From contig NZ_CP010904.1 of NCBI RefSeq assembly GCF_001017655.1, forward strand, positions 750,001-782,000: DNA of 32,000 nucleotides. The letters run 5' to 3'. Of this stretch, positions 3,007-25,856 are shown piece by piece. The notes under the pieces are model-generated. The model made no database searches. It saw only the letters and a program-made list of their open reading frames with translations, and was not told the DNA's origin. Position numbers and translations under genes: made by a program. Position 1 is the first letter of the stretch. Every line of letters starts with the position of its first letter. The stretch comes from Kiritimatiella glycovorans (GTDB lineage Bacteria; Verrucomicrobiota; Kiritimatiellia; Kiritimatiellales; Kiritimatiellaceae).

Positions 3007-3196
3007 CATGAAGAGCATGAAGGTGGGTTGAGGGGCGGTGAACATAATTCGTACTCTTACTCGTACTCGTATGCGTACTCGGAGCGCCGAAGGCGCGATC
3101 CCATTCCCCCTGTTCAGGGAACTCGAGTACGAGTACGAATTATGTTCTCTCTGAAACCCGATTTCGACTTCGATCCGGATTTCGAGATCCCATCCG
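3007..3196 (+). repeat. Composite intergenic repeat, copy A: CATGAAG box, long palindrome, and GATTTCGA-rich module
   Basis: 3007-3130 is near-identical to 9230-9359 in the same orientation. 3160-3196 matches 23288-23324 at 28 of 37 positions by hand alignment. Confidence 0.85.
3040..3147. repeat. 108-bp imperfect palindrome (MITE-like or structured-RNA-like) embedded in repeat copy A
   Basis: The left arm GAACATAATTCGTACTC(TTACTC)GTACTCG (3040-3069) pairs with the right arm CGAGTACGAGTACGAATTATGTTC (3124-3147): 17 bp perfect plus 7 bp after a 6-nt bulge. The loop holds a second small hairpin, GCGCC-GAA-GGCGC. Confidence 0.8.
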
Positions 3197-3300
3197 CTGT
3201 AATCCGAGTCGAAAACACAAGAAGGGTCTCTCGCAAAGGCGCCGGGACCGCAAAGGTGAATGAGAAGAGCCCAGGCGAAGGAATCGTGCGCTCTCTCTTA

Positions 3301-3444
3301 CGTCCGTAGTAGGCCCGCAGGCCTGCGAAGCAGGGCCAGGGCCGTTATCTTCACGCGCCTGGCCTGCCGGGGGCAGGCCAGGCGCTACTACGAACGGTAT
3401 AACGCGCCTTGGCCCTTCGGGCGCTTGCGGCGCTACTACGAACG
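3301..3444. repeat. REP/BIME-like cluster: one inverted and two direct units of a GC-rich hairpin followed by CTACTACG(A/G)ACG
   Basis: GGCGCTACTACGAACG occurs at 3381-3396 and 3429-3444. An inverted, diverged copy CGTCCGTAGTAGGCC starts at 3301. A perfect 13-bp stem GCGCCTGGCCTGC/GCAGGCCAGGCGC spans 3355-3385. The second unit contains GCCC-TTCG-GGC. The cluster lies between convergent genes. Confidence 0.7.
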
Positions 3445-3552
3445 TTTGTCGTCTCCCATCCCGACCCCGGCATCCTCTGTGGCCGCTGTGGTGAATCCCC
3501 ATCCCGCCTCTTCCCCAAAACGACTCCCCCCCACAAAATCCACGAATCATCG

Positions 3553-6198
3553 CTATTTTGCGGATTCGAGCGGATGGCCGTGTTCATCGAAGAGCTTCCA
3601 CAAACCGGGATTCCCGTTCTCATCCAGCTCGCGTCGAGCGATGGAATAATGCCCGTCGGTGCGGCAGCAGGGTTCGCCGTCCGGGCCGAAGTGGCGTTGT
3701 TCTATCAGCAGGTCGCCTTCGAATGTGCATTCATAGCGGTGGATGCCCTTATCATCCGCAACGGGCTGCTCGTGCTGATCGAAATAGCTGACCATTGTGG
3801 CGTTTCCCGTCTCGTCGTATTTTTTACGGACGACGGCGTATCCCCCGGTAGTGTTGACGGGACGGCCCCGGGTGTCGAAAAACAGCCGCTCAAGTTCGCG
3901 GCCCGCTTCGTCGAGCTTCGATCGGTACCCATGGTTCCCGTCGCGATGGGTTGTGGGGGCATTCCCGGCATCATGATAGCGGCGTTCGATCTCGCGCCCC
4001 GACTCGTCATACTTGATATGGAGAAAGGTAAAGCCTTCCTCCGTGTGGGAGGCGGGCCGGCCGTGGGCATCAATGACGCAGAACTCGACGAGTTTACCCT
4101 GTTCGTTCAGAACCTGTCGGAATCCGTAGTCGTAGGTGCTGTGACGGGTCGGGTCGCCGAGGGCATCGAAATAGCGATACGTATCGCCCGTCCCCTCATA
4201 AATGATCTGGCAGCGGTGATATCCTTTCGGGTGAAGTGCGGGTCGTCCGTCTTCATCATAAAAGGACTCGGATGTCCGTCGCCCCTCATCATCGAGCGTC
4301 CATCGAAGCGTCACATAGCCATTGGTGGAAAAGGTCGGCTCGCCGTCGGGTCCGAGAAAGGTTTCCGCGATCTGGCGATCCCGGTCGTCGTGCTCGAATC
4401 GAAGACCGCAGTACCCGCCGGGCATGCGCAGCGGTGTTCCGGAAGCATCGAAGTAGCGCTCCACCTTGCGCCGACCCCGCTCGTCATAACGGAAGCGCAG
4501 GATGGCGATACCCCGGGCATTGGCGCATGGCAGGCGGTCACAGCCGAAATGGACGCGTTCGACGGGATGGCCCCGCTCGTTCCAGGAAAGACGGTAGCCG
4601 TGGCACCCCTCTTCACAAAGCATGGGTTGCCCGCGTTCGTCGTAGTACCGCTCCTCGATTAATCGGTCGAAGCCGTCGTAGATTCGTCGAACCGTGGCAT
4701 ACTCGCACCCTGAGATGGCCGTGGGGTGGTTTTCGATGTTCAGCCACGTCTTTTCGATTTCATTACCGCGGGCATCGTAGCGGCAGACGACGGCGTGATT
4801 GCCGTCCCGGTGCGCGACGGGCTGGTTCGAACACCCGAAGTAGCGGGTTTCCAGGATATTGCCCATGGAATCGCGGCGATAGCTGATCCGGTGTGTCCCG
4901 TCATGATCAAGAACGGGCCGACCATCGGCGCCGAAACAGCGCCAGTCGAGGCAGTTGCCCCGGTCGTCATTGACCAGACGATTGATGGCGTATGCTTGAC
5001 CCTCAGGACAGACCGGATGGTCGTTCAGATCGACCCAGACCTGTTCATCGAGATATCCGTTGCGGTCGAAGGAGAAGTTTCGTCCGTGAAACCCGTTCTC
5101 GTGGAGGCAGGGGTGCCCGTGGCGGTCAAAGTAGCGCTCACGGCCGACGTTCACGGCGTCGATCCACGTATAGCGCTTTTCGGTCACTCCGTCCCGGGAT
5201 TCCGGCTCGCCGTCCAGCCCCAGGTAAACCTCTGAGATGATTCTGCCCTGATCGTCAAAGGCATAGCGTGTACCGTGTGTTTCTGTGGAGGAATGGAGGC
5301 AGGGATCGCCCTCCGGGCCGTAGTGGCGGCTCTGTATCGTATCGCCGCATGGGTTGTATTCGTTGCTCCATGAGTGGAAGTTCCAGCGGTCGTCCACCGC
5401 CGGGCGACCCTGATCGTCGAACAACGTGACGGATACGATATTGCCCCACTTGTCGTGACGGTAGCGTGCCTCGCACCAGCCGCTGCGCACGCAGCAGAGA
5501 TCGTTCGTGCCCTCCGCACCGTAGGAGATGGACCGCACGTGTCTCCCCCCGGAGTAGAAGTAAAGATGACCGGCTGCACCGGCGTGGGAGCGCAGGGGTT
5601 CGTAGCTCTCAAGGGTCCGGCGGCGTGCATCGCGATCTTCCCTTTTCAGCCGCAGGTAACGATGTTCGACGAGGCGACCCTCCTCATTATACCGGAAGGC
5701 GCTGGCGTGAGCCCCTTCCAGGCCGGGCAGGGGCTCGCCGTGAGCGCCGCAGTACTCGACCAGCGTTTCCATCCCCCCCGCTCCGTAGGAGATGCGCACG
5801 TATTCGGCCGCCGCCGTCACGGCGTTGGTGGTCGTTCCGGCCGCCTGGATCGCCTGGCGCTGACGCTGCGCGTATCCCCCGGCGCCGACGAAGTGTGCGA
5901 AGCGGGAGCGCGGCTGTCCCTCGTCGAGGTTCAGGGCGTTGTACTGCAGGATCCAGACGACCTTGCCCTCGGCGTTTTCGCCGATCTCATGCATCACGCG
6001 ACCCTGTTCGTCGGTGACGAAACGCCACTGACACACTTCGCGCAGGAGCCAGTCGGGTACCACCCCCGTCGCATCGCCGGAGTCTGATCCCCATTCCTCT
6101 CTTCCCCAGAGATAGGTGTCGCACCAGTGATCGATCGTGGGCCGGTCATGGCCGTTCACGGCAATAACCCGGTCGACCGGCCGCTTTGGAAACTGCAT
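3553..6198 (-). CDS. Protein of about 20 tandem YD/RHS-like beta-hairpin repeats (~37 aa each); probably the C-terminal part of a longer ORF (see 6460-6481)
   Basis: Repeating pattern [YF]FD..G.P......G.H.....YD..G...E, for example RYFDASGTPLRMPGGYCGLRFEHDDRDRQIAETF, SFYDEDGRPALHPKGYHRCQIIYEG and LFFDTRGRPVNTTGGYAVVRKKYDETGNATMVSYF. No signal peptide after Met 6198. The same frame stays open upstream to 6510, with no ATG/GTG/TTG, and encodes a TM helix there. Confidence 0.8.
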   Translation of the reverse strand: MQFPKRPVDRVIAVNGHDRPTIDHWCDTYLWGREEWGSDSGDATGVVPDWLLREVCQWRFVTDEQGRVMHEIGENAEGKVVWILQYNALNLDEGQPRSRFAHFVGAGGYAQRQRQAIQAAGTTTNAVTAAAEYVRISYGAGGMETLVEYCGAHGEPLPGLEGAHASAFRYNEEGRLVEHRYLRLKREDRDARRRTLESYEPLRSHAGAAGHLYFYSGGRHVRSISYGAEGTNDLCCVRSGWCEARYRHDKWGNIVSVTLFDDQGRPAVDDRWNFHSWSNEYNPCGDTIQSRHYGPEGDPCLHSSTETHGTRYAFDDQGRIISEVYLGLDGEPESRDGVTEKRYTWIDAVNVGRERYFDRHGHPCLHENGFHGRNFSFDRNGYLDEQVWVDLNDHPVCPEGQAYAINRLVNDDRGNCLDWRCFGADGRPVLDHDGTHRISYRRDSMGNILETRYFGCSNQPVAHRDGNHAVVCRYDARGNEIEKTWLNIENHPTAISGCEYATVRRIYDGFDRLIEERYYDERGQPMLCEEGCHGYRLSWNERGHPVERVHFGCDRLPCANARGIAILRFRYDERGRRKVERYFDASGTPLRMPGGYCGLRFEHDDRDRQIAETFLGPDGEPTFSTNGYVTLRWTLDDEGRRTSESFYDEDGRPALHPKGYHRCQIIYEGTGDTYRYFDALGDPTRHSTYDYGFRQVLNEQGKLVEFCVIDAHGRPASHTEEGFTFLHIKYDESGREIERRYHDAGNAPTTHRDGNHGYRSKLDEAGRELERLFFDTRGRPVNTTGGYAVVRKKYDETGNATMVSYFDQHEQPVADDKGIHRYECTFEGDLLIEQRHFGPDGEPCCRTDGHYSIARRELDENGNPGLWKLFDEHGHPLESAK

Positions 6199-7735
6199 CT
6201 CCGTCCAATTGAATTTCGGACGGTGCAGACCGTGGTATACAAACTTGAACGAAGTGCTGCGGTGACCCGCCTCGTCCGGGGTCAGGGGGCTGAGGCCTGC
6301 CGGGATACCGTGGCGCTTGGTGAATGTCTCGTAGTAGCGGACATGGGTCCGGACGAAGAACCACCAGCTCGAGCCGATCAGTCCCGCGAGCAGGAGGACG
6401 AGCAGCGCCGCACTGCCGGCGGCGACCCTGAAGCGCCTGCGCTCGCGACGAAGGCGGAGCCTCTCTTCGCGCGCGCTCCGCTGATTCGCGCCGCGCCCGG
6501 ACGATCGGCGTCAGGACGTCGTGGGTCAGTTCGATCATCGCTACGCCGCGCACATTTTCGATGTGCAGCAGGCGTCGCTCCACCAGCAGATCCACCGCCC
6601 GGCGCGCCGGGGCGGTTTCCAGTCCCGTGCCGCGGATGAAGTCCTCGACCGGCGCGAACATCCTCCGGCCGTCGCCCGTGAGCAGGGCATCTTCAACGGC
6701 GCGCGCTACCGGGTCGGCCACCGCCGCCATGGTCGCGTCGTAAAACTCCTCGAACACGCGTCGTCCGACCCCGGAGAGCAGGTCGGCCCCGATGTCCGTG
6801 CGACCCTGTTCGATCCGGCGGCGATTGAGTTCGAAACACATCAGCGAGAGCAGGGCGGGTTCAACCAGAATGTCGTCGAGCGCGGCGTTGGGGGAAGCAC
6901 CCGCAGCCATGCGCACGATCGTCTCCGCCGTGGGCTCGTCCATCAGGTGTTGCCCCGAAGCGCGCAGCGCGCCGAAGGCGGCCTCGCCGCTGAAGGGCTC
7001 CAGCCGCATCTCGTTGGACATGATCGAAGGACAGCGATCGCGGAGCGCCAGCAGCTCGCAGAGGAAATCCTCACGCAGGCTCAGCAGCAGGCGGACGCGA
7101 TCGAGCTGATATTCGAACGGAGGATCTTCTCCGCGCTCGGCGGCCGCTTCAATCATCGCCGCCGCAGCCCGCGGGACGCGATGTTCCGCGAGACAGGAAA
7201 GATCTTCGAGCAGCGCGTCCACAGCCCGGGGGCAGCGGCGGCCGAGAGTAAAGGCTTCTTCGAACTGGTCGAAAACGAGCACCGGCACGGCGGGGCGGTT
7301 GCGCGGCGTCCAGAAAAAGAGGCCGGCGCGGTTAAAGGTCTCCCAGAGCGTGCGGTCGGTACGTTCCAGCGGACGTTCTTCGGAACTTTCGACGGTGATC
7401 CCCGCATCCTTCAGCGCGGCGCGGACGGCGCTCAGCACCTGGTCGCGCAGGACCTCCACGGTACAGTTCTCATCGAAGCTGAGCCTGAGGTAGACGGGGA
7501 TAAAGCGCTCTTCACGGAGTTGCGGGAACACACCGGCCCTGAGCAGCGAGGTCTTGCCGACGCCGGAGATGCTGTAGAGCACGGAGAGCCGACTGCGCTT
7601 GACGCGTCGCAGCAGTTCGGCGGTCTCCTCCGCGCGTCCGTGGAAGAAGTCCCGGGACGATTCGGAAAAGGCGACCAGGCCCGGCCACGGCTGGTCGCGT
7701 GTGAGTTCCGGGGACGGGACGGCGGGACGCGTCAT
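6146..7735 (-). CDS. STAND-type (NACHT-like) P-loop NTPase; the last ~110 codons of this frame are probably not genuine
   Basis: ATG 7735 overlaps the upstream stop as ATGA. PWPGLVAFSESSRDFFHGR lead-in, Walker A LYSISGVGKTSLLRAG, Walker B VPVLVFDQFEEAF, a helical domain, and a winged-helix-like end RRLLHIENVRGVAMIELTHDVL. The 76 codons that the ORF track places upstream of Met 7735 overlap the previous gene and are discounted. Confidence 0.8.
   Translation of the reverse strand: MTRPAVPSPELTRDQPWPGLVAFSESSRDFFHGRAEETAELLRRVKRSRLSVLYSISGVGKTSLLRAGVFPQLREERFIPVYLRLSFDENCTVEVLRDQVLSAVRAALKDAGITVESSEERPLERTDRTLWETFNRAGLFFWTPRNRPAVPVLVFDQFEEAFTLGRRCPRAVDALLEDLSCLAEHRVPRAAAAMIEAAAERGEDPPFEYQLDRVRLLLSLREDFLCELLALRDRCPSIMSNEMRLEPFSGEAAFGALRASGQHLMDEPTAETIVRMAAGASPNAALDDILVEPALLSLMCFELNRRRIEQGRTDIGADLLSGVGRRVFEEFYDATMAAVADPVARAVEDALLTGDGRRMFAPVEDFIRGTGLETAPARRAVDLLVERRLLHIENVRGVAMIELTHDVLTPIVRARRESAERARREAPPSSRAQALQGRRRQCGAARPPARGTDRLELVVLRPDPCPLLRDIHQAPRYPGRPQPPDPGRGGSPQHFVQVCIPRSAPSEIQLDGDAVSKAAGRPGYCRERP
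6460..6481 (-). other. Probable frame-change site joining the STAND NTPase ORF to the TM/repeat ORF
   Basis: A (GC)n run CGCGCGCGC sits at 6468-6476. Upstream of it the NTPase frame reads sensibly (..IELTHDVLTPIVRARRESAERAR). Downstream, the +1 frame reads EERLRLRRERRRFRVAAGSAALLVLLLAGLIGSSWWFFVRTHVRYYETF.. and runs without a stop into the 6198 ORF. The original frame instead becomes Pro/Arg/Gly-rich, featureless sequence. Confidence 0.6.
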
Positions 7736-9120
7736 GCCGGAACCCCCATCAGTTCTTTCTGCTTGTTCCGGTCGGCCTTGTGCAGTTCGCGGACCAGGGC
7801 CTGGGCAGGCAGGCCGGCGGGGCAGGAGGTCATTTGGAGGCTGCGGAAGGCAAGCGGGAGATTTTTCGCCTCGTAGGGCTCCGTGTCGTCGATCACGGCG
7901 GGGAAGATAAAGCCCGGCCGGCGTTCGGCGTTGCGCTCGACGAAATCGCGAGCCTCCTTCCACTCGCGGTAGAAGAAACGGTCCTGCGAAGCGGCCTCGG
8001 TATTCGCGGATATCAGCGGCACAAACGCGGCGGCCTTGTGAATGTTGCGGACGATCTCGGGCACCCAGGCGCAGCCGGGGGCGAGCTTGGCTTCATCCAG
8101 CCACACCTCGAGCCCCCACTCATCGAGCGCATCGCGCATGGCACGCGCCGCCTCAAGGTCCTCGCGCGCGTAGCTGAGAAAGATCGCTCCCTCGGTCATG
8201 GGCGCGCGCCGGGGTCCGCCCGGGCCCGCGGCCCCCTTGCGTGAGGTCTCGCGCCAGCGGTCGCGCAATTCGCGCACGAATTCTCCGGCCGAACCCTCGT
8301 AGAGTCCCGCATCGGCGCAGTAGCGCGTGACGAAGTGGCAGAAGGAGGTGTCGTGCGCCTCCCGGCCGCCGAGGAAAAGTCCCTGGGTCTCATGACTGTT
8401 GATCGGCGCATTCTTGATCAGGCGCAGGAGGAAGCGACCGAGCCAGTCGGGATACCCGAAACCGATCAACAACAGATTGCTGGTCTTCAGTTCGTCGAAG
8501 AGTACGTTCGGCTGGCGTTCGGGATTCTGCAGCGCGGTTACAAATTCCAGTGTGTCGATCTCGCTGAGGGCGTAATTCGGCCGGGCGCTCGGCGCGCCCA
8601 TCAGGTGGTAGACGATCGGCTGTTCCAGCGTGTCGAGCTGGATCGTAGAGGGCAGGTCGACGGGGGCATCAGGCGAATAGACCAGTTCGCTCGCATCCCC
8701 TAGAGCTTCGTCGAGCAGGGGGCAGATGGTCAGGTTCACGAAAAGGCGGAACGAGGTGATCTCGGCGAGCGCCCGGAGGTTGGGGCCCGGCTTGAGCGGA
8801 GCGCGGAGAATCGCCTTGGCCTTCGGGTAGACCGACTTGATGTTGCCGCCCCCGTCGAGATGGGCGCGAACGACCGCATCCACATTCGGAGATGTCCCGT
8901 TTTCGTTTTCAGGCGACACGTCGAGCGATTGTGCCAGCGTCTCGGCGAGGTAGTCCTGGAACAGCCGCACGGTGCCGTCGATTTCGACATCCATAATGCG
9001 CGGCCCGAGAACGGGAATGACCCGTCCTTCGTCCAGGAACTCCAGCACGTCTTCGATGGAATAGGTCTGACGCATACCACGCCGATCATTTGAACGGGCC
9101 CACTTAACGGCCCGCCGCAT
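7732..9120 (-). CDS. Fusion protein: N-terminal SIR2-like (SIR2_2-type) domain plus C-terminal TIR domain
   Basis: N-terminal half: VIPVLGPRI.., PIVYHLMGAPSARPNYALSEIDTLEF and NLLLIGFGYPDWLGRFLL parallel the GAG / KLHG..T..DY / GYS..D blocks of SIR2_2 proteins. C-terminal half: AIFLSYAREDLEAARAMRDALDEWGLEVWLDEAKLAPGCAWVPEIVRNIHKAAAFVPLISANT...FFYREWKEA is a typical bacterial TIR. Alternative start at ATG 9075. Confidence 0.75.
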   Translation of the reverse strand: MRRAVKWARSNDRRGMRQTYSIEDVLEFLDEGRVIPVLGPRIMDVEIDGTVRLFQDYLAETLAQSLDVSPENENGTSPNVDAVVRAHLDGGGNIKSVYPKAKAILRAPLKPGPNLRALAEITSFRLFVNLTICPLLDEALGDASELVYSPDAPVDLPSTIQLDTLEQPIVYHLMGAPSARPNYALSEIDTLEFVTALQNPERQPNVLFDELKTSNLLLIGFGYPDWLGRFLLRLIKNAPINSHETQGLFLGGREAHDTSFCHFVTRYCADAGLYEGSAGEFVRELRDRWRETSRKGAAGPGGPRRAPMTEGAIFLSYAREDLEAARAMRDALDEWGLEVWLDEAKLAPGCAWVPEIVRNIHKAAAFVPLISANTEAASQDRFFYREWKEARDFVERNAERRPGFIFPAVIDDTEPYEAKNLPLAFRSLQMTSCPAGLPAQALVRELHKADRNKQKELMGVPA

Positions 9121-9229: not shown

Positions 9230-9359
9230 CATGAAGAGCATGAAGGTGGGTTGAGAGGGGTGAACATAATTCGTACTCTTACTCTTACTCGTACTCGTAC
9301 GCGTACTCGGAGCGCCGAAGGCGCGATCCCACTCCCCCCTGTTCAGGGAACTCGAGTAC
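9230..9359 (+). repeat. Composite intergenic repeat, copy B (CATGAAG box plus a degenerate palindrome)
   Basis: Aligns with 3007-3130 in direct orientation, with a 6-nt TTACTC expansion, a 1-nt indel and a few substitutions. The right palindrome arm is degraded (GAGTATGAGTACGATGTGAC). It lies about 110 nt upstream of the SIR2-TIR start. Confidence 0.85.
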
Positions 9360-9491
9360 AAGCATTGCTTCGCGGAGTATGAGTACGATGTGACGCGAGC
9401 GGATTTTTAATCCAGCCGCTACGATTCCGGCCGTTCCGCAAGAATCCATGAAGAACCCTGTTTTTCCTCAAACGAAACACCCGCATCCGCC

Positions 9492-10559
9492 TCATACATC
9501 CAGGTGTTGTTTGATAAATGCGGCGATAGCGTCAAATGCAGCTTCATGGTTTTTATAGTCGCGGTCCATCCGGCGCACGCATTCGACACCGACTTTTTCC
9601 GCCTTCTTCTCCAGGTATCGGCCGAAGTTCGAATGATGGATATTGCCCGGGACGCTTTGTTTTTCGAAATGAAAAGAGAATACCGGCGGGTCGCCGGCGT
9701 CCAGATGGGTTACGGGCGAAGCGTCTTTAAACAGCGCATCCTGTTCCGGCGTAATCCGGGCGGTGTCGAGCGACCAGTTCTCCGGAAGGCCGTAGAAGGC
9801 CGGCAGCGCGTCGTGCCGACCGGTCATTCCCGGGATGATCTCACGAATCACACGCGGGTCGTACGTCGACTGCATATTGTACGCGAGGACGCAGGAGAGG
9901 CGGGTCGACTGGCGCTCGATCGGATCGCTGCTCGCCGGATCGGCGAGATCATCATGGAACCCCAGCCACTGCGCGATTCCCGACCCGGCCGAGCCCCCGC
10001 CCGCGGCCACACGCCGCGGGTCGATAGCCCATTCCTCCGCCCTGGAACGCAGAAACTGGATGGCGCGCGCGCTGTCCTCCATCGGTTGCGGGTACGGTCC
10101 GAGGTGCGTGAGACGATAATTGACCGACGCTACGGAAACGCCGGACTCCAGAAGCCTCTCCATCAGTTCCCGGGGAATCCCGGACTTGTCGCCGCCCCGG
10201 AATCCTCCCCCGTGAAACCAGACGAACAGCGGCGCGGGCCGGTCCGACGCCGCTTCCCAGAAGTCGAGCACCATGCTCTCGTGCTCGCCGTAGCAAACGT
10301 CGCGGTGCGTGGGGGGCACACGATATGGCCGTTTCTTCCGGCCCCTCTCGCGGCGCGAGGCCCGAACCTCGTTCTCCGTAAGCATCCCATCGCGGTTTCG
10401 ATCGAGCCCCGGCCTGCGCTCAAGCAGTTTGCGGAGACCGGCGTGGTTTTCGGAAGTCCGTGCACCCTCACTTCGCAACCCACCCGGACCCGCCAGACAC
10501 AGTAAGGCGATCAGCCCTATCCGTATCCTCGTTCCCATCGCATGAATCTCTGGTGTCAT
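9492..10559 (-). CDS. Secreted alpha/beta-hydrolase-fold esterase (HGGG-type)
   Basis: Signal-peptide-like MGTRIRIGLIALLCLAG (alternative start 10538). EF-hand-like loop DRNRDGMLTENE. Oxyanion motif WFHGGGF. Nucleophile elbow GGGSAGSG. Confidence 0.8.
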   Translation of the reverse strand: MTPEIHAMGTRIRIGLIALLCLAGPGGLRSEGARTSENHAGLRKLLERRPGLDRNRDGMLTENEVRASRRERGRKKRPYRVPPTHRDVCYGEHESMVLDFWEAASDRPAPLFVWFHGGGFRGGDKSGIPRELMERLLESGVSVASVNYRLTHLGPYPQPMEDSARAIQFLRSRAEEWAIDPRRVAAGGGSAGSGIAQWLGFHDDLADPASSDPIERQSTRLSCVLAYNMQSTYDPRVIREIIPGMTGRHDALPAFYGLPENWSLDTARITPEQDALFKDASPVTHLDAGDPPVFSFHFEKQSVPGNIHHSNFGRYLEKKAEKVGVECVRRMDRDYKNHEAAFDAIAAFIKQHLDV

Positions 10560-10869
10560 GATGGAGCGGCCCTCCTTTTGTCTGCTCGCGAACTATGGGG
10601 CGAACCCTTTCGTTTGCGTGCTCTCCCGCGGGGTCTCTTTCAACCCCCGCGTCGCGATGACCGGAGTCGAGCCTACCCGAGCAATGCCGGGAGAGAAAGG
10701 GGTTTCCATAAAGGGGGGATGATCATTGCAAAACGGAACAGGTAGCGCCGTATCCGGATTGACGAAGTCGGCTGAGATATTCGTCTTTGTGTATTACTCG
10801 CAATGAGTTAGATTCGGGTTTGGCGCGGGTGGTTCAGGTTGCGCCTCTTAACCCCGGGAGAGATACAAT

Positions 10870-11325
10870 ATGGCCCTGAAGGACGAGCTTAAAAAATTGA
10901 TCATCACCGAAGCCCGTCGGGAAATCCGCAGCGAGCTTCAGTCCGTAAAGAGCATGAACAATCGGCAGAAGAAGCATATCGCCAATCTGCGGCGTCAAAT
11001 CGATGCCCTCGAAAAAAGGATGAAGGCGCTTGAGAAACGGGTGCCGGAAGAACCGGCCGGTCTTGAGGTCCCGGGTGAAGAGGTCGGCGGCTGGCTCACG
11101 GGCAACGGTGTAAAGGCGGCCCGGGAACGGTTCGGATTCAGCCGGGCGCAGATGGGGACCCTGGCCGGGGTAAGCGATCAGAGCATCCTTAACTGGGAAA
11201 ACCGCGGCCGTAAAAAGATCGAATTCAGAAGTGCCGAGACCCTGGCCCGGATGAAGGCGATTGTGGCTCTGGGCAAGCGTGAGGCCCAAAGTGAACTGGA
11301 GCGAATGGAGGCGGCGCAGGGCTGA
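10870..11325 (+). CDS. Helix-turn-helix (XRE/Cro-like) protein with an N-terminal coiled coil
   Basis: ATG preceded by GGGAGAG. N-terminal heptad-rich IRSELQSVKSMNNRQKKHIANLRRQIDALEKRMKALEKR. C-terminal GFSRAQMGTLAGVSDQSILNWENRG is an HTH. Confidence 0.7.
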   Translation: MALKDELKKLIITEARREIRSELQSVKSMNNRQKKHIANLRRQIDALEKRMKALEKRVPEEPAGLEVPGEEVGGWLTGNGVKAARERFGFSRAQMGTLAGVSDQSILNWENRGRKKIEFRSAETLARMKAIVALGKREAQSELERMEAAQG

Positions 11326-11594
11326 GCTTTTTTGAAACCTGTCATCCGTGGTCGTTCCCGCCTGTTCGAAAACGCAAGACATGACTCTCGCAAAGATCGC
11401 AAAGAGAAATGAGAATCGCATAGGCAAGGGAATCGTGTTTTCCGAATGAAGAAATTCCCTGGCCACCTTGGCGGCCTGGCGGGAGAAAAACAGGTTCGAA
11501 CCAGTCACTTCAGCGGACGGAGTCCCGCCGCTGAGTTCAACCGTTATGCACAATAGTAATAGCGGAAAATATGCAGATAGGGAACGGACATTAA

Positions 11595-14054
11595 ATGGCA
11601 CTGAAAAAATCCCAACTCTACACCTCCCTCTGGCAGTCCTGCGACGAGTTGCGCGGCGGCATGGACGCCTCCCAGTACAAGGACTACGTCCTGACGCTGC
11701 TGTTCATGAAGTACGTCAGCGACAAGCAGGATTCGCTGATCGAGGTTCCCGAGGGCGGCAGCTTCCAGGACATGGTAGCGCTGAAGGGCGACAAGGAGAT
11801 CGGCGACAAGATCAACAAGATCATCGGGCGCTTGGCCGAGGCCAACGATCTCAAAGGCGTCATCGACCAGGCGGACTTCAACGACGAGACCAAACTCGGT
11901 TCCGGCAAGGACATGCAGGACCGGCTCTCCAAGCTCGTGAGTATTTTTGACCAGCTGGATCTGGGCGCCAACCGCGCCGACGGCGACGACCTGCTGGGCG
12001 ACACCTACGAGTACCTGATGCGCCACTTCGCCACCGAGTCCGGCAAGAGCAAGGGCCAGTTCTACACCCCCGGCGAGGTCTCGCGTGTGATCGCCCAGGT
12101 GGTGGGTATCGGCCCGGATACGCGCCAGGACGAGACGCTGTATGACCCCACCTGCGGCTCGGGCTCGCTGCTGCTGCGCGCCGCTTACGAGGCCCCGCAG
12201 GGTCTGAGCATCTACGGCCAGGAAAACGACAACGCCACCTGGGCGCTGGCGAAGATGAACATGATCCTGCACGACTACCCCACCGCCGAACTGTGGCGGG
12301 ACAACACCCTCTCGCGCCCCTATTTCAAGAGCGCCGACGGCCGCCTCAAGACCTTCGACTACGCCGTCGCCAATCCGCCGTTCTCCGCCAAGTCCTGGAC
12401 CAACGGCCTGGACCCGGCCAACGACGAGTTCGACCGCTTCGAATACGGCATCCCGCCGGCCAAGAACGGCGACTACGCCTTTTTGCTGCACCTGATCAAG
12501 TCGCTCAGGTCCACCGGCAAGGGCGCCATCATCCTGCCCCACGGCGTGCTGTTTCGCGGCAACAAGGAGGCCGACATCCGCCGCAAGCTGATAAGCCGCG
12601 GGCTGATCAAGGGCATTATCGGTCTCCCGGCCAACCTCTTCTACGGTACCGGCATCCCCGCCTGCATCCTGGTCATCGACAAGCAACAGGCCGCCGGCCG
12701 CGAGCACATCTTTATGGTCGACGCCAGCCGCGAGTTCATCAAGGACGGCAACAAGAACCGCCTGCGCTCGCGCGACATCCACAAGATCGTGGACGTATTC
12801 AACCACCAGCGCGATCTGCCCGGCTACGCCCGCCAAGTGCCGCTGGCCGAAATCGCCTCCGAGGCCAACGACTCCAACCTCAACATCCCGCGCTACATCG
12901 ACACGGGCGAGGCCGAGGACCGCCACGACCTCGGCGCGCATCTCAACGGCGGCATCCCCCAGCGCGACGTGGACGCGCTGGCACCCTACTGGTCCGTACT
13001 GCCCGGCCTGCGCGAGGCCTTGTTCAAAGACAACGGCCAGCCCGGCTACCTGGAAGCGAAGGTCGAGACCCGGCAAGTCAAGCCCACCGTGCTGGCGCAC
13101 CCCGACTTCCAGGCCTTCGCGGGCACCGTCAGCGGCGTCATCAACGCCTGGCAGGCGGCCCATCGCTCGGCACTGCACGCCCTGCAAGCCGGCGACAAGC
13201 CCCGGGATGTGATCCACGCCCTGTCCGATGACCTGCTCCAGCGCTTTGCTGAGATACCACTGCTGGACCGCTACGCCGTCTACCAGCGCCTGATGGACTA
13301 CTGGGCCGACGTCATGGCCGACGACGCCCACCTCATCGCCGCCGAGGGCTGGCAGGACGCCGCCCGCCCCCGCGGCGTCATCGACAACAAGGAACGCAAG
13401 ATCAAGGAAGCCCCCGACCTCACCATCGGCAGCGGCAAAAAGGCCAGGAAATACAAGCTGGACCTGATCCCGCCCGCGCTGGTCATCACCCGCTACTTCG
13501 CCGACCAGCAGGCCAGGCTCGAAACACTACAGGCCGAGCAGGAAACCGCCACCCGCGAGCTGGAGGAATTCATCGAGGAACAGGCGTCGATGGATGGGGG
13601 CGAGGAAGACCCCTTGAGCGAGGTCAAAAACGACAAGGGCAAGGTCACCAAAACCGAGATCCCCAAACGCCTCAAGGCCCTCAAGGGCGAGCCGGACAGC
13701 GCCGACGAGATCGCCGCCCTCAAGCAGTGCAAAACGCTCATGGAGGCCGAGGCCAGCGCCAAGACGGCCGTCAAGAACGCCCAGGCCGAGCTCGATCAGG
13801 CCGTGCTCGCCCGCTACGAATCCCTCACCGAGGACGAGATCAGGCAGCTCACGGTGGACGACAAATGGCTGGCCGACATCCGCGCCGCCATCGAATCCGA
13901 AGTCGAGCGCATCACCAACCAACTCGCCGGCCGCGTCCGCGAGCTGGAAGAACGCTACGCCGAGCCCTTGCCGGCCATCGAGCGAGAGGTCGAGGACCTG
14001 GCCGCGCGGGTCACCGGCCACCTGGAGAAAATGGGGGTGCGGGTCGATGGTTGA
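11595..14054 (+). CDS. hsdM: Type I restriction-modification methyltransferase subunit M, with a long coiled-coil C-terminal extension
   Basis: N-terminal HsdM-type LWQSCDELRGGMDASQYKDYVLTLLFMKYVSDK. FYTPGEVS. SAM motif YDPTCGSGSLLL. Catalytic ANPPFS. 819 aa in total. Confidence 0.92.
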   Translation: MALKKSQLYTSLWQSCDELRGGMDASQYKDYVLTLLFMKYVSDKQDSLIEVPEGGSFQDMVALKGDKEIGDKINKIIGRLAEANDLKGVIDQADFNDETKLGSGKDMQDRLSKLVSIFDQLDLGANRADGDDLLGDTYEYLMRHFATESGKSKGQFYTPGEVSRVIAQVVGIGPDTRQDETLYDPTCGSGSLLLRAAYEAPQGLSIYGQENDNATWALAKMNMILHDYPTAELWRDNTLSRPYFKSADGRLKTFDYAVANPPFSAKSWTNGLDPANDEFDRFEYGIPPAKNGDYAFLLHLIKSLRSTGKGAIILPHGVLFRGNKEADIRRKLISRGLIKGIIGLPANLFYGTGIPACILVIDKQQAAGREHIFMVDASREFIKDGNKNRLRSRDIHKIVDVFNHQRDLPGYARQVPLAEIASEANDSNLNIPRYIDTGEAEDRHDLGAHLNGGIPQRDVDALAPYWSVLPGLREALFKDNGQPGYLEAKVETRQVKPTVLAHPDFQAFAGTVSGVINAWQAAHRSALHALQAGDKPRDVIHALSDDLLQRFAEIPLLDRYAVYQRLMDYWADVMADDAHLIAAEGWQDAARPRGVIDNKERKIKEAPDLTIGSGKKARKYKLDLIPPALVITRYFADQQARLETLQAEQETATRELEEFIEEQASMDGGEEDPLSEVKNDKGKVTKTEIPKRLKALKGEPDSADEIAALKQCKTLMEAEASAKTAVKNAQAELDQAVLARYESLTEDEIRQLTVDDKWLADIRAAIESEVERITNQLAGRVRELEERYAEPLPAIEREVEDLAARVTGHLEKMGVRVDG

Positions 14055-15342
14055 GCGGAGCGAGATGATGGAACAGGAGGCCATGCGGGATGCGTCGCTC
14101 GCTTACTCGGTAGAGGCCAGGACGGCTATCGCAGAGGATGTGCCGCCTGGGTACAAGCGGACTGAAGTGGGGGTGATTCCGGAGGATTGGAGCGTCAAGA
14201 CGGTAAGTGAATTCGGTCAAGTGATCACAGGAGGAACCCCTTCCACGAAAGTGCGGGCTTACTGGGGAGATGCTTATCCGTGGGTAACGCCAACAGATAT
14301 ATCTACAAACAAAGATATTTGCTCTACTGAGCGGCACTTGAGTGAGGCTGGGTTCAGAGTAATGCGGGGGCTCCCGGCGAATACGGTGCTAGTTACATGC
14401 ATTGCTAGCATTGGAAAGAATGCAGTTCTGAGAACGCCAGGATCCTGTAACCAACAAATCAACGCTGTGATCCCTGACCGAGACTATGACTCTGACTTTC
14501 TGTACTACCTCTTTGAGTTCTCCAAAAACTACTTGATCGGAAGCGCGGGGACTACTGCTACAAGTATCATTTCCAAAAGTCTATTCAGCAGTTTGGCCTT
14601 TGCTCTACCTGCCATCCGTGAACAACGCGCCATCGCCACCGCCCTGTCGGACGCGGACGCGCTGATCGAATCCCTCGACCGCCTGATCGCCAAAAAGCGC
14701 GCCATCAAACAGGCCGCCATGCAACAACTCCTCACCGGCCAGACCCGCTTGCCGGGCTTCACCGGCGAATGGGAGACGACGCGGTTGGGGGAGATTGCTG
14801 AGATTGTCATGGGGCAATCCCCAGGTTCTGCCTTCTACAACGCGAAAGGGGAAGGGCTACCGTTAATACAAGGCAATGCTGATATTGAGAACCGTCAGAC
14901 GATTCGACGGATAAGCACTACCCAGATCACCAAGAAAGGCAGGCGAGGGGATATTCTTTTGTCAGTGCGCGCGCCAGTCGGCGAAGTCTCGCGCGCAACC
15001 TTCGATGTTTGCTTAGGCCGCGGTGTCTGCGCCCTGCGATTTCCGACCGATTTCTTATTTCACTACTTGGTTTACCTGGAGCCCTCATGGGGAAAGCACT
15101 CAAAAGGATCAACTTTTGATTCAGTGAACTCTGCCGACATTAAGGCCCTGGAGGTCGCGCTACCAGGCACCGAAGAACAAACCGCCATCGCCACCGTCCT
15201 CTCCGATATGGACACCGAAATCGAAGCCCTGGAGCGCCGCCGCGACAAAGCCCGACAGATCAAGCAGGGCATGATGCAGCAGCTCCTCACCGGCCGGGTG
15301 CGGTTGGTGGAACCGGAATCACCCACGGAGGCAAAGGCATGA
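14047..15342 (+). CDS. hsdS: Type I restriction-modification specificity subunit S (two target-recognition domains)
   Basis: Overlaps the hsdM stop by 8 nt. Two conserved spacer helices: LPAIREQRAIATALSDADALIESLDRLIAKKRAIKQAAMQQLLTGQTRLPGF and LPGTEEQTAIATVLSDMDTEIEALERRRDKARQIKQGMMQQLLTGRVRL. Each follows a variable domain of visibly lower GC. Confidence 0.9.
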   Translation: MVERSEMMEQEAMRDASLAYSVEARTAIAEDVPPGYKRTEVGVIPEDWSVKTVSEFGQVITGGTPSTKVRAYWGDAYPWVTPTDISTNKDICSTERHLSEAGFRVMRGLPANTVLVTCIASIGKNAVLRTPGSCNQQINAVIPDRDYDSDFLYYLFEFSKNYLIGSAGTTATSIISKSLFSSLAFALPAIREQRAIATALSDADALIESLDRLIAKKRAIKQAAMQQLLTGQTRLPGFTGEWETTRLGEIAEIVMGQSPGSAFYNAKGEGLPLIQGNADIENRQTIRRISTTQITKKGRRGDILLSVRAPVGEVSRATFDVCLGRGVCALRFPTDFLFHYLVYLEPSWGKHSKGSTFDSVNSADIKALEVALPGTEEQTAIATVLSDMDTEIEALERRRDKARQIKQGMMQQLLTGRVRLVEPESPTEAKA

Positions 15343-20400: not shown

Positions 20401-20581
20401 AGCGCTCGACTTGGACCATGCCATCCGGGCAATCAAGAAGGCTGACTGGCGGGGCAATACGTTCAAGGAGCGCGAGGTGCGCAACGCCATCGCCTCGGTG
20501 CTGGAGGCCCGGGTGCGCGAGACCGATATGCCTGACGTGGATGCTGTCCTCGAACTGGTGAAGAACCAGAATGACTACTGA
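17438..20581 (+). CDS. hsdR: Type I restriction endonuclease subunit R
   Basis: ATGA overlap with the previous gene. N-terminal nuclease-region motif VLELKR. Helicase motifs HTQGSGKS, FVFVDECHRTQSG, GFTGTPL, VVDKLLTGFDAP and QAICRVNR. Confidence 0.92.
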   Translation: MSQVGQRERQTQQQVLRFFQDELGYHYLGDWKDRDGNRNVEEGPLRDWLARQGHDDNVITKALRELDQAAAIGGSKTLYDANRAVYEKLRYGVHVKPSVQEQTVTVWLIDWANPENNDFAVAEEVTVVGANTKRPDVVLYVNGIALGVLELKRSTVAVAEGMRQSLDNQKRDFIQPFFATVQLVMAGNPSEGLRYGVIETPEKFWMEWKEPSEIEDPLERGLHQLCRKERLLEIVHDFMVFDAGTKKTCRHNQFFGVRAAQDHVRRCQGGILWHTQGSGKSLIMVWLAKWIRENVSDARVLIITDRTELDEQIEKVFKGVDEQIHRTKSGADLIDVLNRSDEWLMASLIHKFGASEEGDVEAFIQDLRRHLPKGFAARGNLFVFVDECHRTQSGKLHEAMKALLPEAMLIGFTGTPLLKQDKRTSLEVFGPYIHSYRFDEAVRDGVVLDLRYEARDIDQHVTSQDKIDQWFDRKTQGLNDYARAQLKKRWGTLQKVLSSRDRLEKIVSDILWDMATRDRLMSGHGNAMLVAGSIYSACRLFEMFEQTELKGKCAIVTSYVPSTADIKGEATGEGETEKLHQYAIYRRTLAEHFNEPEETAVNKVETFEQEVKKRFIDEPGQMKLLIVVDKLLTGFDAPPATYLYIDKQMRDHGLFQAICRVNRLHTEDKDVGYIIDYKDLFKSLEQSIQDYTGGAFDAFDAEDVDGLLEDRLDKARERLEETREAVKALCEAVEPPRDSAAYRRYFVGPSNAPEVQKGNEPKRLALYKHVGAFLRAYADLGNEMQRAGYSQAEAAAIKAEVEQYEKVREEVKLASGDYIDMKMYEPAMRHLLDSYIRAEESEKLSAFDDMTLVELVVERGEAAVDSLPASIAGDKEAMAETIENNVRRLIIDEMAVNPKYYERMSELLDALIEQRRKEALDYKEYLRRIVELTRQAAQREDTSRYPTGIDTPAQQALYDNLGDTASSAMAEATAPYGGTRPASARVRLALDLDHAIRAIKKADWRGNTFKEREVRNAIASVLEARVRETDMPDVDAVLELVKNQNDY

Positions 20582-21299: not shown

Positions 21300-21405
21300 A
21301 GAGCTGCGCATACCAATAGCGTCAACTCGGACCGGCTTTTCCGCTGGCGCTCCCAAGCCGGCCGGTTACGCTAGACGTTAGCAGCCAAGAAACGGAGAGA
21401 GAATT

Positions 21406-22137: not shown

Positions 22138-22155
22138 ATATATAAGGATATAATC

Positions 22156-23163: not shown

Positions 23164-23188
23164 CTGCTAACAATCGCATGCACTCGGA

Positions 23189-23229
23189 CAGCAAAAAGCG
23201 CCACTCGTTCCTCGCTCTGCTTTTTGCTG
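23189..23229. terminator. Inverted repeat just after the AT-rich cassette; possible terminator
   Basis: Perfect 11-bp stem CAGCAAAAAGC (23189-23199) / GCTTTTTGCTG (23219-23229) with a 19-nt loop. The T-run lies inside the stem rather than after it, so this is not a canonical intrinsic terminator. Confidence 0.3.
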
Positions 23230-25795: not shown

Positions 25796-25856
25796 GGCGG
25801 TCTCCTTTCGGGTTGGTTTGCCCCGAGCGTCCAACATGGACGCTCAGGAGACCGCC
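25796..25856 (-). promoter_or_regulatory. Fold-back hairpin sequestering the transposase Shine-Dalgarno
   Basis: On the minus-strand RNA, GGCGGUCUCCU (25856-25846) pairs with AGGAGACCGCC (25806-25796), which directly abuts AUG 25795. An inner perfect 9-bp hairpin GAGCGTCCA-ACA-TGGACGCTC sits at 25825-25845. The distal arm overlaps the IS terminal repeat. Confidence 0.55.

Follow-up and report, generated by a model that had tools for sequence, protein, structure and literature searches.

The C-terminal repeats of STAND proteins serve as sensors, and known Avs proteins detect phage proteins in the cytoplasm. In the Avs/AVAST and bNACHT families, including Avs5 (SIR2-STAND), a STAND NTPase core and a C-terminal repeat sensor are accompanied by an NAD-targeting effector domain. 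TIR NADases require oligomerisation for activity, and in Thoeris (ThsB TIR plus ThsA SIR2-SLOG) a TIR domain is combined with a SIR2 fold. For NTPases of the nSTAND1 clade, a role in counter-invader systems has been predicted, together with effectors of the TIR or SIR2 type and with sensors made of repeats or FGE domains (Kaur, Burroughs, Iyer, and Aravind, eLife 2021, PMC8195603). In addition, ‘Transmembrane STAND ATPases’ fused to proteases next to Pepco appear in one sentence and a figure of a 2025 preprint (PMC12642450). We compared with these systems a locus of Kiritimatiella glycovorans, which is a damaged copy of a widespread two-gene bacterial module.

Gene content and genomic context

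The window is the whole 32,000-nucleotide stretch that was analysed, and all positions are given in its numbering. The locus at 3553-9120 contains minus-strand open reading frames at 7732-9120 (462 aa), 6146-7963/7735, and 3553-6198 (881 aa). The initial annotation described three such frames with an ATGA shared at 7732-7735, and all of these sequence features are present. It counted them as three genes, but the NTPase and repeat frames are a single gene cut by a frameshift, with more than 60 single proteins spanning 93-100% of the repaired product (1394 aa). The locus consists of two genes, A and B, rather than three.

7732-9120, minus strand: gene A, SIR2-like plus TIR effector, 462 aa, ATG at 9120 (translation, Pfam)
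7735 to 3553, minus strand: gene B, frameshifted; nSTAND1 NTPase, Arg-rich stretch, one predicted TM helix, ~24 YD/RHS-type hairpins
7732-7735, minus strand: ATGA, gene A stop overlapping the NTPase start codon (sequence check)
3553-3555, minus strand: gene B stop codon
3007-3140: left copy of a structured intergenic repeat, downstream of gene B (repeat match; fold -56.9 kcal/mol, z = -4.9)
9230-9365: right copy of the ~135-nt structured intergenic repeat, just upstream of gene A (D1, D3, and D5 direct-repeat families, pairwise alignment)
9492-10559: BD-FAE esterase
10834-11601: unassigned 255-aa ORF between the esterase and hsdM
11595-20581: type I R-M operon with embedded GmrSD

In public databases, gene A is AKJ63927.1 (‘TIR domain-containing protein’, start 9075, 447 aa), the NTPase part of gene B is AKJ63926.1 (‘ATP-binding protein’), and the repeat part is AKJ63925.1 (‘RHS repeat protein’ or CWBP200, 881 aa, start ATG 6198).

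Genes A and B are translationally coupled, and a 4-nt stop-start overlap like that at 7732-7735 is present in 48 of 76 related loci. The pairing of NTPase and effector is near-obligate. Starting from the effector, the NTPase is next in 77/77 informative genome loci (77/80 overall; the other three have no downstream DNA). Starting from the NTPase, the effector lies upstream in 62 of 65 metagenome loci and in six out of six further look-ups. The conserved co-occurrence expected of a trio is therefore found, but as a duo, and no third conserved gene was found beside the pair in related loci. Nor is the layout peculiar to K. glycovorans, as the effector family comprises at least 547 clusters at 50% identity, and the YD array is a minority sensor.

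The two intergenic repeats are direct copies that bracket the locus, as previously noted, and contain blocks that are 95-100% identical. Their 23-mer core occurs just twice in the whole window, where chance would give 0. An accessory or defence context also holds, with type I R-M, GmrSD, and a transposase remnant (a split Mutator transposase gene) near. The initial annotation had a single esterase gene between the locus and the R-M operon; both are present, but the 255-aa ORF lies between esterase and operon as well. Related loci elsewhere have SLATT, patatin, or extra TIR genes nearby.

The gene A effector

The gene A protein shares 100% identity with P0121, and its AF2 model has a pLDDT of 85. 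Because it contains no hydrophobic segment (maximum KD 1.41), it is predicted to be cytoplasmic.

8233-9063, minus strand: SIR2-fold domain, aa 20-296 (Foldseek, structure model, profile alignment to ThsA)
8728-8730, minus strand: Thr131 at the canonical Asn position (profile alignment to ThsA)
8599-8601, minus strand: Met174 at the canonical His position (profile alignment to ThsA)
7801-8193, minus strand: TIR domain, aa 310-440 (TIR_2 57.6 bits, cut-off 28)
7963-7965, minus strand: TIR catalytic Glu386, present in 29/29 family members

The SIR2_2 match scores 18.6 bits, under the Pfam cut-off of 24.5, but the structure model confirms the fold. The best Foldseek matches are ThsA, KomC, DSR2, and the SIR2 domain of Avs5 (E down to 7e-11, probability 1.0). 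When profiles are aligned, TTTFD falls opposite TTNYD of ThsA and vfHLlG opposite vyKMHG. The ThsA-N112 column is T, S, or C in 29/29 family members, and the ThsA-H152 column is F, L, or M in all 29. Since the whole family lacks the canonical Asn and His, the SIR2-like domain is probably a pseudo-enzyme or adaptor. The proposal of a dual NAD-consuming effector thus stands for the TIR domain, with Glu386 intact, and for the SIR2 fold, but not for SIR2 catalysis. With both columns substituted throughout, a second NADase is not credible, and there is no ‘SIR2 His’ available for mutation. The domain does have strongly conserved surface motifs (G39, W226, R229, R233). The K. glycovorans copy is more degenerate than its relatives, with NLTIC in place of the family TTTFD; Asp133, kept in 27 of the 29 members, is Cys here.

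The TIR profile matches that of SPARTA TIR-APAZ at E 4e-12, and E386 pairs with TIR-APAZ E77. E77A is the mutant employed in the SPARTA papers (PMC9097488).

Gene B: NTPase, frameshift, and predicted topology

Gene B combines the following features.

6467-7735, minus strand: nSTAND1 NTPase module, aa 1-423 (PF20703 95.7 bits over aa 16-408, cut-off 27.1)
7550-7564, minus strand: Walker A GVGKT, Lys61
7256-7282, minus strand: Walker B VLVFDQFEE
6462-6480, minus strand: frameshift site, +1 shift needed within GCGCGCGCGAAGAGAGG (three-frame translation, DNA sequence)
6427-6468, minus strand: Arg-rich stretch EERLRLRRERRRFR
6352-6426, minus strand: predicted TM helix VAAGSAALLVLLLAGLIGSSWWFFV (mean KD hydropathy 2.21)
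3553-6351, minus strand: predicted extracytoplasmic part, a juxtamembrane beta segment followed by ~24 YD/RHS-type hairpins

The nSTAND1 score bears out the initial annotation's assignment of a STAND NTPase. The enzyme was also correctly said to have no N-terminal effector of its own: just 15 residues (~17 had been given) stand ahead of PWPGLVAF, with residue 16 as the first of the Pfam match. The NTPase begins at residue 5-20 in all of the 120 top homologues, so none of them has an N-terminal effector.

Beyond ...RARRESAERAR the NTPase frame becomes junk, and the +1 frame carries the protein onward through the Arg-rich stretch and the helix into the repeats. No ATG, GTG, or TTG start codon occurs in the +1 frame upstream of ATG 6198, so the TM helix is translatable solely after frame repair. 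The frameshift is located in short GC/GA dinucleotide runs. As sequenced, the K. glycovorans copy is most likely inactive, the alternative being that the frameshift is a sequencing error. We give even chances to a dead relic, in which the frameshift is real, the NTPase is junk-tailed, the 881-aa repeat ORF is not translated or yields an orphan protein in the cytoplasm, and nothing works here. Such decay would fit the frameshift itself, the repeat frame without a start codon upstream of the helix, the NLTIC motif with its Cys for Asp133, and the Mutator transposase, a second split gene in the same window. However, both halves of gene B retain long open frames, conserved motifs, and high-confidence models, which argues that the lesion is either very recent or an assembly indel, and slippage or sequencing error is plausible at GC/GA runs. 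A dead relic would concern the K. glycovorans copy alone and is compatible with a family-level explanation.

A predicted TM helix followed by YD-type repeats is present, as first described. The TM call was based on hydropathy, charge bias (nine K/R before the gene B helix, two after), and the AF2 model of the C-terminal part, in which an unbroken helix runs across residues 2-39. A single hydrophobic helix right after the NTPase is found in essentially all complete partners, and in 77/77 from metagenomes. Across homologues, K/R means are 5.9 before the helix and 1.8 after, and the bias has the N-in direction in 114/115 and 60/64 members of two sets, in agreement with the positive-inside argument that had put the repeats outside. 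We infer that gene B encodes a single-pass membrane protein with a cytoplasmic NTPase and with its C-terminal repeats predicted to lie outside the cytoplasm. A cytoplasmic enzyme, a single TM helix, and extracellular repeats make up the architecture of PknB-type kinases.

The repeats match the YD/RHS profiles TIGR01643 and PF05593 (RHS_repeat 29.6 bits, cut-off 22; YD_repeat_2x 44.1 bits, cut-off 15.8). Profiles and model bear out their identity but not the count of ~20, as the model (AF2 pLDDT 84.5) contains ~24 two-strand hairpin units of ~32 aa each. Foldseek matches include T6SS Rhs effectors, teneurins, and Tc BC subunits (E down to 4e-29), and Pfam detected no RHS core or toxin domain in gene B. 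The juxtamembrane beta segment is conserved. Across the family, sensor types are swapped on a constant NTPase-TM chassis: TPR, WD40, and FGE-sulfatase domains, compared with which YD arrays (with or without a C-terminal PDZ) are a minority. The C-terminal part varies in length from 109 to 1543 aa. In bacteria, PDZ domains lie mostly in the periplasm.

Proposed function and comparison with known systems

We lean, slightly beyond even chances, towards a TLR-like, outside-in STAND/TIR NAD-depletion defence system, with function and topology read from sequence and models. The extracytoplasmic repeats would bind a periplasmic or cell-surface cue; candidates are structural or ejection components of phages and attacks on the envelope. 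Binding would lift autoinhibition, and the NTPase modules would oligomerise in the plane of the membrane. The oligomer may then recruit or cluster the gene A protein via its pseudo-SIR2 domain. Clustered TIR domains could build active NADase sites and deplete NAD+, leading to abortive infection or growth arrest. The constant TIR-protein partner of a membrane-spanning ATPase suggests an immune receptor that watches the envelope, not the cell interior. Several points count against this reading. TPR_10/12 and canonical WD40 sensors in STAND proteins are normally cytoplasmic, so TPR or WD40 in the periplasm would be unusual. Effector and NTPase share no EAD or Death-like adaptor through which they could dock, the PADLOC models give the pair no earlier link to defence, the viral contigs searched did not contain the system, and the K. 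glycovorans copy is disrupted.

In an alternative reading of the same module, the helix and outward repeats would only anchor the complex at the envelope, for example at phage entry sites, and the signal would be detected on the cytoplasmic side, either by the NTPase or by the SIR2-like domain, perhaps as an NAD/nucleotide sensor. That TPR and WD40 domains are atypical in the periplasm speaks for it. A SIR2-like fold kept without its catalytic residues and the conserved G39, W226, R229, and R233 fit such ligand or partner binding. We consider this unlikely, as C-terminal domain swapping and extreme length variation on a conserved chassis are the signature of a specificity-determining sensor, and a simple anchor does not need 650-1500 aa.

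Less likely still is non-immune transmembrane signalling, in which the ectodomain senses an environmental or surface cue (polysaccharide, cell contact) and the TIR domain produces a signal from NAD or adjusts NAD metabolism while the cell survives. Some STAND NTPases, such as MalT and AfsR, are indeed ordinary regulators, and teneurins, among the fold matches, use YD shells for cell-surface recognition. Moreover, the module sits on the chromosomes of free-living environmental diderms and was not found in the viral contigs searched. However, there is no conserved third gene to read a TIR-made signal, the context is defence-like both here and elsewhere, and a hyper-variable sensor fits an arms race. 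Finally, it is highly improbable that the public annotation is right and that RHS/cell-wall-associated toxin-like, ATP-binding, and TIR proteins come from three independent genes: GenBank, RefSeq, and UniProt names agree with it and the YD repeats are genuine, but there is no RHS core, Asp-protease, C-terminal toxin, signal peptide, or PAAR or VgrG link, and more than 100 homologues have the repeats joined to the NTPase via the TM helix.

The outside-in defence module that we favour is apparently undescribed. As the initial annotation suspected, the layout matches no named system that we found: no PADLOC model covers the pair, which thus has no earlier link to defence, no Avs, NLR, or Thoeris model matches, and the literature yielded no description of a SIR2-TIR protein paired with a membrane-spanning NTPase. 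Activation through oligomerisation is expected for the module as for Avs and bNACHT, and the Avs5 SIR2 domain matches that of gene A by fold. In those systems, however, the effector is an N-terminal fusion, whereas the module makes it as a protein of its own, translationally coupled to the NTPase, which is of the nSTAND1 clade and is set apart from the sensor by a TM helix. The nSTAND1 conflict systems share the PF20703 NTPase but couple effectors via EAD/Death-like adaptor domains, which the module lacks, and we found that study (PMC8195603) to mention neither a TM helix leading to an extracytoplasmic sensor nor a partner protein in which SIR2 and TIR are fused.

By structure and by profile, the N-terminal domain of gene A is matched best by ThsA. 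Unlike Thoeris, gene A has TIR and SIR2 fused in one protein, with no SLOG and without the catalytic Asn and His, and a STAND partner is required. Among solved TIR domains, that of SPARTA TIR-APAZ comes closest in sequence profile, but the module has no APAZ domain and no Argonaute partner, and activation is proposed to come from a STAND oligomer instead of guide and target nucleic acid. Gene B has YD hairpins in common with T6SS Rhs effectors, Tc toxin BC, and teneurins, and shares with teneurins its predicted type II topology (intracellular N-terminus, one TM helix, extracellular YD array). In contrast to those shells, it has no RHS core, autoprotease, or encapsulated toxin, and its repeats are joined to an NTPase; a closed cocoon is putative, because global TM-scores are low (0.15-0.27).

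By analogy only, PknB-type Ser/Thr kinases with PASTA repeats and animal Toll-like receptors likewise join an extracellular repeat sensor through one TM helix to a cytoplasmic signalling module, with TIR-based output in the receptors. Neither has sensor or transducer homology to the module, in which a STAND NTPase acts as the transducer and a separate protein carries the TIR domain, predicted to be enzymatic. The only mention we found of TM-bearing STAND ATPases as sensors in defence modules is that in PMC12642450, where the effector is a protease with Pepco, as opposed to the SIR2-TIR protein of the module described here.

Reading frames and gene number

Three ORFs lie head to tail on the minus strand between 9120 and 3553, closely packed as the initial annotation had described:

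7732-9120, minus strand: ORF of gene A, the SIR2-like/TIR effector, 462 aa
7735-6146, minus strand: ORF of the NTPase part of gene B, 529 aa counted from the ATG
6198-3553, minus strand: ORF of the repeat part of gene B, 881 aa

The ATGA at 7732-7735, also part of that description, holds the gene A stop and the NTPase ATG in common. Gene A is 100 per cent identical to WP_052881311/AKJ63927 from Kiritimatiella glycovorans.

The NTPase ORF is sensible as far as THDVLTPIVRARRESAERAR and then runs through Pro/Arg/Gly-rich junk to the stop at 6146. At this break the +1 frame reads EERLRLRRERRRFR, next VAAGSAALLVLLLAGLIGSSWWFFV, and continues stop-free into the 881-aa repeat ORF; the minus strand at the putative frameshift site, near 6462-6480, is GCGCGCGCGAAGAGAGG. 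Because the +1 frame has no ATG, GTG or TTG upstream of ATG 6198, the hydrophobic helix of gene B is made only after frame repair near 6462-6480. With the repaired 1394-aa gene B as query we found 2499 homologues, more than sixty of which are single chains, 1300-2000 aa long, spanning 93-100 per cent of its length at ~30 per cent identity. One gene, therefore, encodes the NTPase and the ‘RHS repeat protein’ as its two halves, and the three separate genes of the initial annotation become two. The public records make the same split (AKJ63926, ‘ATP-binding protein’; AKJ63925, ‘RHS repeat protein / CWBP200’), so that the annotation of AKJ63925-27 is misleading in giving two names to the halves of one frameshifted gene.

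The frameshift is either a true mutation or an assembly indel, and in the form sequenced the K. glycovorans copy is probably inactive. We found nothing to support programmed frameshifting or phase variation at the GC/GA dinucleotide runs, which are short, and every homologue is a single ORF. In another locus carrying relatives of the pair (L048, 9116-12474) the partner NTPase is likewise split into two overlapping ORFs, which reflects either another frameshift or an error of assembly; in L071 (3718-10045) one effector gene is followed by two tandem NTPase genes.

We rejected the ORF at 3140-3550, directly downstream of gene B, as an extra gene: it is low-complexity and R/G/P-rich, overlaps the flanking repeat and has no Pfam match. 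A scan for consensus promoters and terminators gave matches no more frequent than in shuffled sequence.

Domains of the two proteins

Gene A had been read as a protein with two NAD-consuming domains, of which the TIR domain keeps its expected catalytic Glu. TIR_2 (PF13676) matches aa 313-416 at 57.6 bits (cut-off 28), and the gene A family profile aligns with solved bacterial TIR domains, SPARTA TIR-APAZ among them, at E 4e-12. In this alignment E386, the Glu of the family ‘FRREW’ motif, falls on SPARTA TIR-APAZ E77, for which E77A is a catalytic mutant (PMC9097488). The Glu is invariant in 29/29 members of the family alignment.

The N-terminal domain departs further from expectation. SIR2_2 (PF13289) reaches 18.6 bits on aa 163-241, under its cut-off of 24.5, and in this it differs from TIR_2, nSTAND1 and RHS_repeat, which all score above theirs. 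A precomputed PF13289 match is present in most gene A homologues. The SIR2 fold assignment stands despite the low score because of the structural matches: in an AF2 model built from the 29-sequence alignment (pLDDT 85), the N-terminal domain resembles the SIR2 domains of ThsA, KomC, DSR2 and Avs5 (Foldseek E 7e-11 to 1e-7, probability 1.0), with TM-scores to the target of up to 0.72. A profile of this domain also aligns with ThsA (E 1.4e-4), pairing the family's ‘TTTFD’ with ‘TTNYD’ and its ‘vfHLlG’ with ‘vyKMHG’. We take N112 (in TTNYD) and H152 (in KxHG), by ThsA residue numbering, to be the canonical SIR2 catalytic Asn and His; 8bto has TTAYD at the Asn motif, which would fit an inactivating mutant. 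In the family, the Asn column is made up of T26/S2/C1 (T131 in the window) and the His column of F14/L11/M4 (M174 in the window), and judging by this alignment both catalytic residues are absent throughout the family. On these columns we reject a ‘dual NADase’ reading of gene A. With Asn and His missing family-wide, we read the SIR2-fold domain as a pseudo-enzyme that may act as an adaptor, scaffold or ligand-binding part, which leaves the TIR domain as the only credible NADase of gene A, its activity being predicted.

In gene B, nSTAND1 (PF20703) covers aa 16-408 at 95.7 bits (cut-off 27.1), and the Walker A (GVGKT) and Walker B (VLVFDQFEE) motifs are intact here and conserved family-wide. 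The NTPase begins at residue 5-20 in 120/120 top homologues; hence none of the 120 has an N-terminal effector or adaptor, as had been remarked of the window's NTPase.

A strongly hydrophobic 19-mer follows the NTPase module at a distance of 20-40 residues, exactly one per protein in essentially all complete partners, and the helix is single in 77/77 metagenome partner NTPases. The window's helix has a KD of 2.21, with nine K/R before it and two after. Among homologues the mean count is 5.9 K/R in the fifteen residues before the helix and 1.8 after, and the bias points N-in in 114/115 and 60/64 of them, in agreement with the positive-inside helix proposed earlier. With one hydrophobic helix of ~20 aa, a positive-inside bias and no N-terminal signal peptide, gene B is a predicted single-pass type II (N-in, C-out) membrane protein. 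Since the NTPase needs ATP, comes without a signal peptide and has the positive-inside charge bias, we infer that it is cytoplasmic; the repeats are predicted to be extracytoplasmic, a layout like that of PknB-type kinases.

An AF2 model of the C-terminal part (pLDDT 84.5) shows a long helix, made up of an Arg-rich stretch and the TM helix, and then ~24 two-strand hairpins of ~32 aa; gene B ends directly past the last of them. This part matches TIGR01643 YD_repeat_2x at 44.1 bits (cut-off 15.8) and RHS_repeat (PF05593) at 29.6 bits (cut-off 22), and the structures it most resembles by Foldseek are those of T6SS Rhs effectors (RhsA, E 4e-29), of teneurins and of Tc-toxin BC subunits. Global TM-scores to YD/Rhs shells are low (0.15-0.27), so a closed YD cocoon is at most a possibility. 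No RHS core (PF03527), autoprotease or toxin domain was detected in gene B.

The YD repeats of the initial annotation are indeed present, but family-wide they are one of several sensor types. The domain after the helix may be TPR (the commonest, ~650 aa), WD40 propellers, FGE-sulfatase (C-type-lectin fold) or YD repeats, with C-terminal lengths from 109 to 1543 aa; YD-type parts frequently end in a PDZ domain. The YD sensor is a minority type, occurring in one of the seventy-seven genome loci with a partner NTPase (L067) and in 2/59 complete partner NTPases of the metagenome scan. By analogy with other STAND proteins, the repeats would be the specificity-determining sensor. The predicted topology is a main uncertainty of this reading, and so are periplasmic TPR/WD40 arrays, an unusual idea.

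Pairing, spread and surroundings

Genes A and B form a conserved, translationally coupled and nearly obligate pair. A pattern scan that took one genome from each GTDB species gave eighty effector loci, and in seventy-seven of these an nSTAND1 NTPase is the next same-strand gene (phmmer E 1e-28 to 1e-87); in the other three the downstream DNA is absent. Starting from the NTPase side, a SIR2_2+TIR_2 gene lies directly upstream in 6/6 homologues looked up, as does the effector in 62/65 metagenome loci with enough upstream DNA. We found no recognisable replacement effector in the remaining three metagenome loci (L106, L152 and L159). The 4-nt stop-start overlap recurs in forty-eight of seventy-six loci. 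The trio expected from the initial annotation is thus conserved as a duo, and all-against-all clustering of the eighty loci returned only the two core genes and shadow ORFs, with no conserved third gene.

At E ≤ 1e-30 the effector family comprises at least 547 clusters, counted as 50 per cent identity representatives. Among the hosts are Opitutaceae and further Verrucomicrobiota, Burkholderiales, a number of Gammaproteobacteria, Thermoanaerobaculia, Holophagales, Gemmatimonadota and Chitinophagaceae, all of them diderm lineages; the phyla represented are Verrucomicrobiota, Proteobacteria, Acidobacteriota, Gemmatimonadota and Bacteroidota. Viral contigs yielded TIR-only matches and no full-length effector.

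Some neighbours recur in contigs unrelated to one another. RyR-domain proteins (PF02026, often TrkA_N+RyR, 600-750 aa) adjoin the pair in three of six loci (L081, L084, L087), and SLATT_1 and/or patatin genes do so in three of six (L082/L083, L085, L084); these genes may be accessory parts or mere defence-island neighbours. Extra same-strand TIR ORFs, two to six per locus, surround the pair in L028, L078, L009 and L035, which are of Opitutaceae type, and in the Betaproteobacteria locus L058.

In the window, the cassette is set among the following features:

290-2137: ABC-F ATPase, left of the cassette
3007-3140: intergenic element, left copy, direct repeat, ~135 nt
9230-9365: intergenic element, right copy, direct repeat, ~135 nt
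11595-14054: hsdM, type I R-M
14047-15342: hsdS, type I R-M
15339-17441: GmrSD-type restriction enzyme with DUF5655 domain, inserted between hsdS and hsdR
17438-20581: hsdR, type I R-M
20571-21299: YgjP-like metallopeptidase, after hsdR
21406-22137: zinc-ribbon + RDD membrane protein, within the low-GC stretch
22156-23163: 335-aa ORF without Pfam match, within the low-GC stretch
23528-25837, minus strand: Mutator-family transposase, split into two ORFs
25837-25034, minus strand: first transposase ORF, HMM positions 12-217
24967-23528, minus strand: second transposase ORF, HMM positions 229-344

The two copies of the intergenic element, correctly reported as direct repeats on either side of the locus, are 95-100 per cent identical in blocks and exactly bracket the two-gene cassette. 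The element has an internal palindrome with 24-nt arms and a branched hairpin fold (-56.9 kcal/mol, z = -4.9), and could be REP-/MITE-like or a recombination scar; an Rfam scan of the window, the element included, returned no family. A 30-nt direct repeat (83 per cent identical) is also found at 3209-3238, in the cassette's left flank, and at 11366-11395, in the region of the 255-aa ORF described below.

To the right of the cassette follow, in order, an esterase, hsdM, hsdS, GmrSD, hsdR, the YgjP-like metallopeptidase, a low-GC stretch, the split Mutator transposase and an FG-GAP/ASPIC protein. The esterase had been named as the only gene before the R-M island. It is there, but a 255-aa ORF (10834-11601, minus strand; no Pfam match) also lies between it and hsdM, so ‘only’ may be inexact. 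GC drops to 39-47 per cent at 21000-23200, against ~62 per cent elsewhere, and this stretch is probably recently acquired DNA. The transposase is the window's second disrupted gene, so both disruptions could reflect pseudogenisation or assembly indel errors. The setting is defence-island-like and scarred by mobile elements.

Proposed mechanism and relation to known systems

The initial reading, a defence operon with an extracytoplasmic sensor, was largely right, and our corrections to it concern gene number, the role of the SIR2 domain and the variety of sensors across the family. In the mechanism we propose, ligand binding by the extracytoplasmic repeats would cause the NTPase to oligomerise in the plane of the membrane, the oligomer would gather gene A proteins by way of their pseudo-SIR2 domain, and the TIR domains, once clustered, would deplete NAD+. 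Direct NAD+ depletion is favoured over a second messenger because nothing conserved lies downstream that could read a TIR-made signal.

Tentatively, then, the pair may represent a large family of transmembrane NLR-like receptors in which interchangeable ectodomains (YD, TPR, WD40, FGE) survey the periplasm or surface and STAND oligomerisation activates a TIR NADase through a pseudo-SIR2 adaptor; such a family would be so far undescribed. To our knowledge, the bacterial STAND/NLR-like immune sensors characterised so far (Avs, bNACHT) all detect phage proteins in the cytoplasm. A membrane-spanning STAND protein whose swappable sensor faces outward, paired with a TIR effector, would move pattern recognition to the envelope, a bacterial counterpart to Toll-like-receptor logic in which infection or attack is sensed beyond the cytoplasm, before the genome enters or as it does so. 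This would raise the questions of which extracytoplasmic ligands the sensor reads, how a STAND switch signals across a single TM helix and how a catalytically dead SIR2 fold couples a TIR NADase to that switch. The interest lies at the level of the family rather than in the K. glycovorans copy, and with so many clusters across several phyla there are plenty of intact homologues to study.

The initial annotation did not recognise the layout as a named defence system, and our comparisons agree. In PADLOC-DB v2.0.0, gene A matches generic TIR segments only, the NTPase has only a 32-aa P-loop match to PDC-S68 (E 0.009) and the repeat ORF matches nothing; no model for Avs/AVAST, bNACHT or other named STAND defence systems was matched. 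NCBIfam adds a YD repeat and a weak TIR segment only. The nSTAND1 clade was defined in EAD/Death-like conflict systems (Kaur et al. 2021, PMC8195603). The available portions of that paper, of a 2020 conflict-systems paper and of a DGR paper using the nSTAND1 term mention no sensor set apart by a TM helix and no SIR2-TIR fusion as partner. Our literature searches returned no paper for ‘SIR2-TIR’ and no description of a SIR2-TIR/STAND pair; in a 2025 preprint (PMC12642450) ‘transmembrane STAND ATPases’ are named in passing as protease-fused sensors beside Pepco.

Typical STAND proteins have their N-terminal effector or adaptor, NTPase and C-terminal sensor repeats all in one compartment, whereas gene B has no N-terminal domain and carries a TM helix between NTPase and repeats. 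Thoeris has separate ThsB (TIR) and ThsA (an active SIR2 or TM effector with a SLOG/Macro signal receptor); in gene A, by contrast, TIR and SIR2 are fused, with neither SLOG nor the SIR2 catalytic residues, and none of the Thoeris models in PADLOC matches. In RHS polymorphic toxins the N-terminus is a secretion or PAAR/VgrG module, the RHS core includes an Asp autoprotease and the C-terminus is a toxin. Gene B is like RHS/YD toxins in its YD repeats, but its N-terminus is instead an NTPase and TM helix. We therefore classify the pair as a STAND/NLR-like + TIR conflict system, presumably Avs/NLR-like in its working yet distinct in layout from Avs, Thoeris and RHS toxins.
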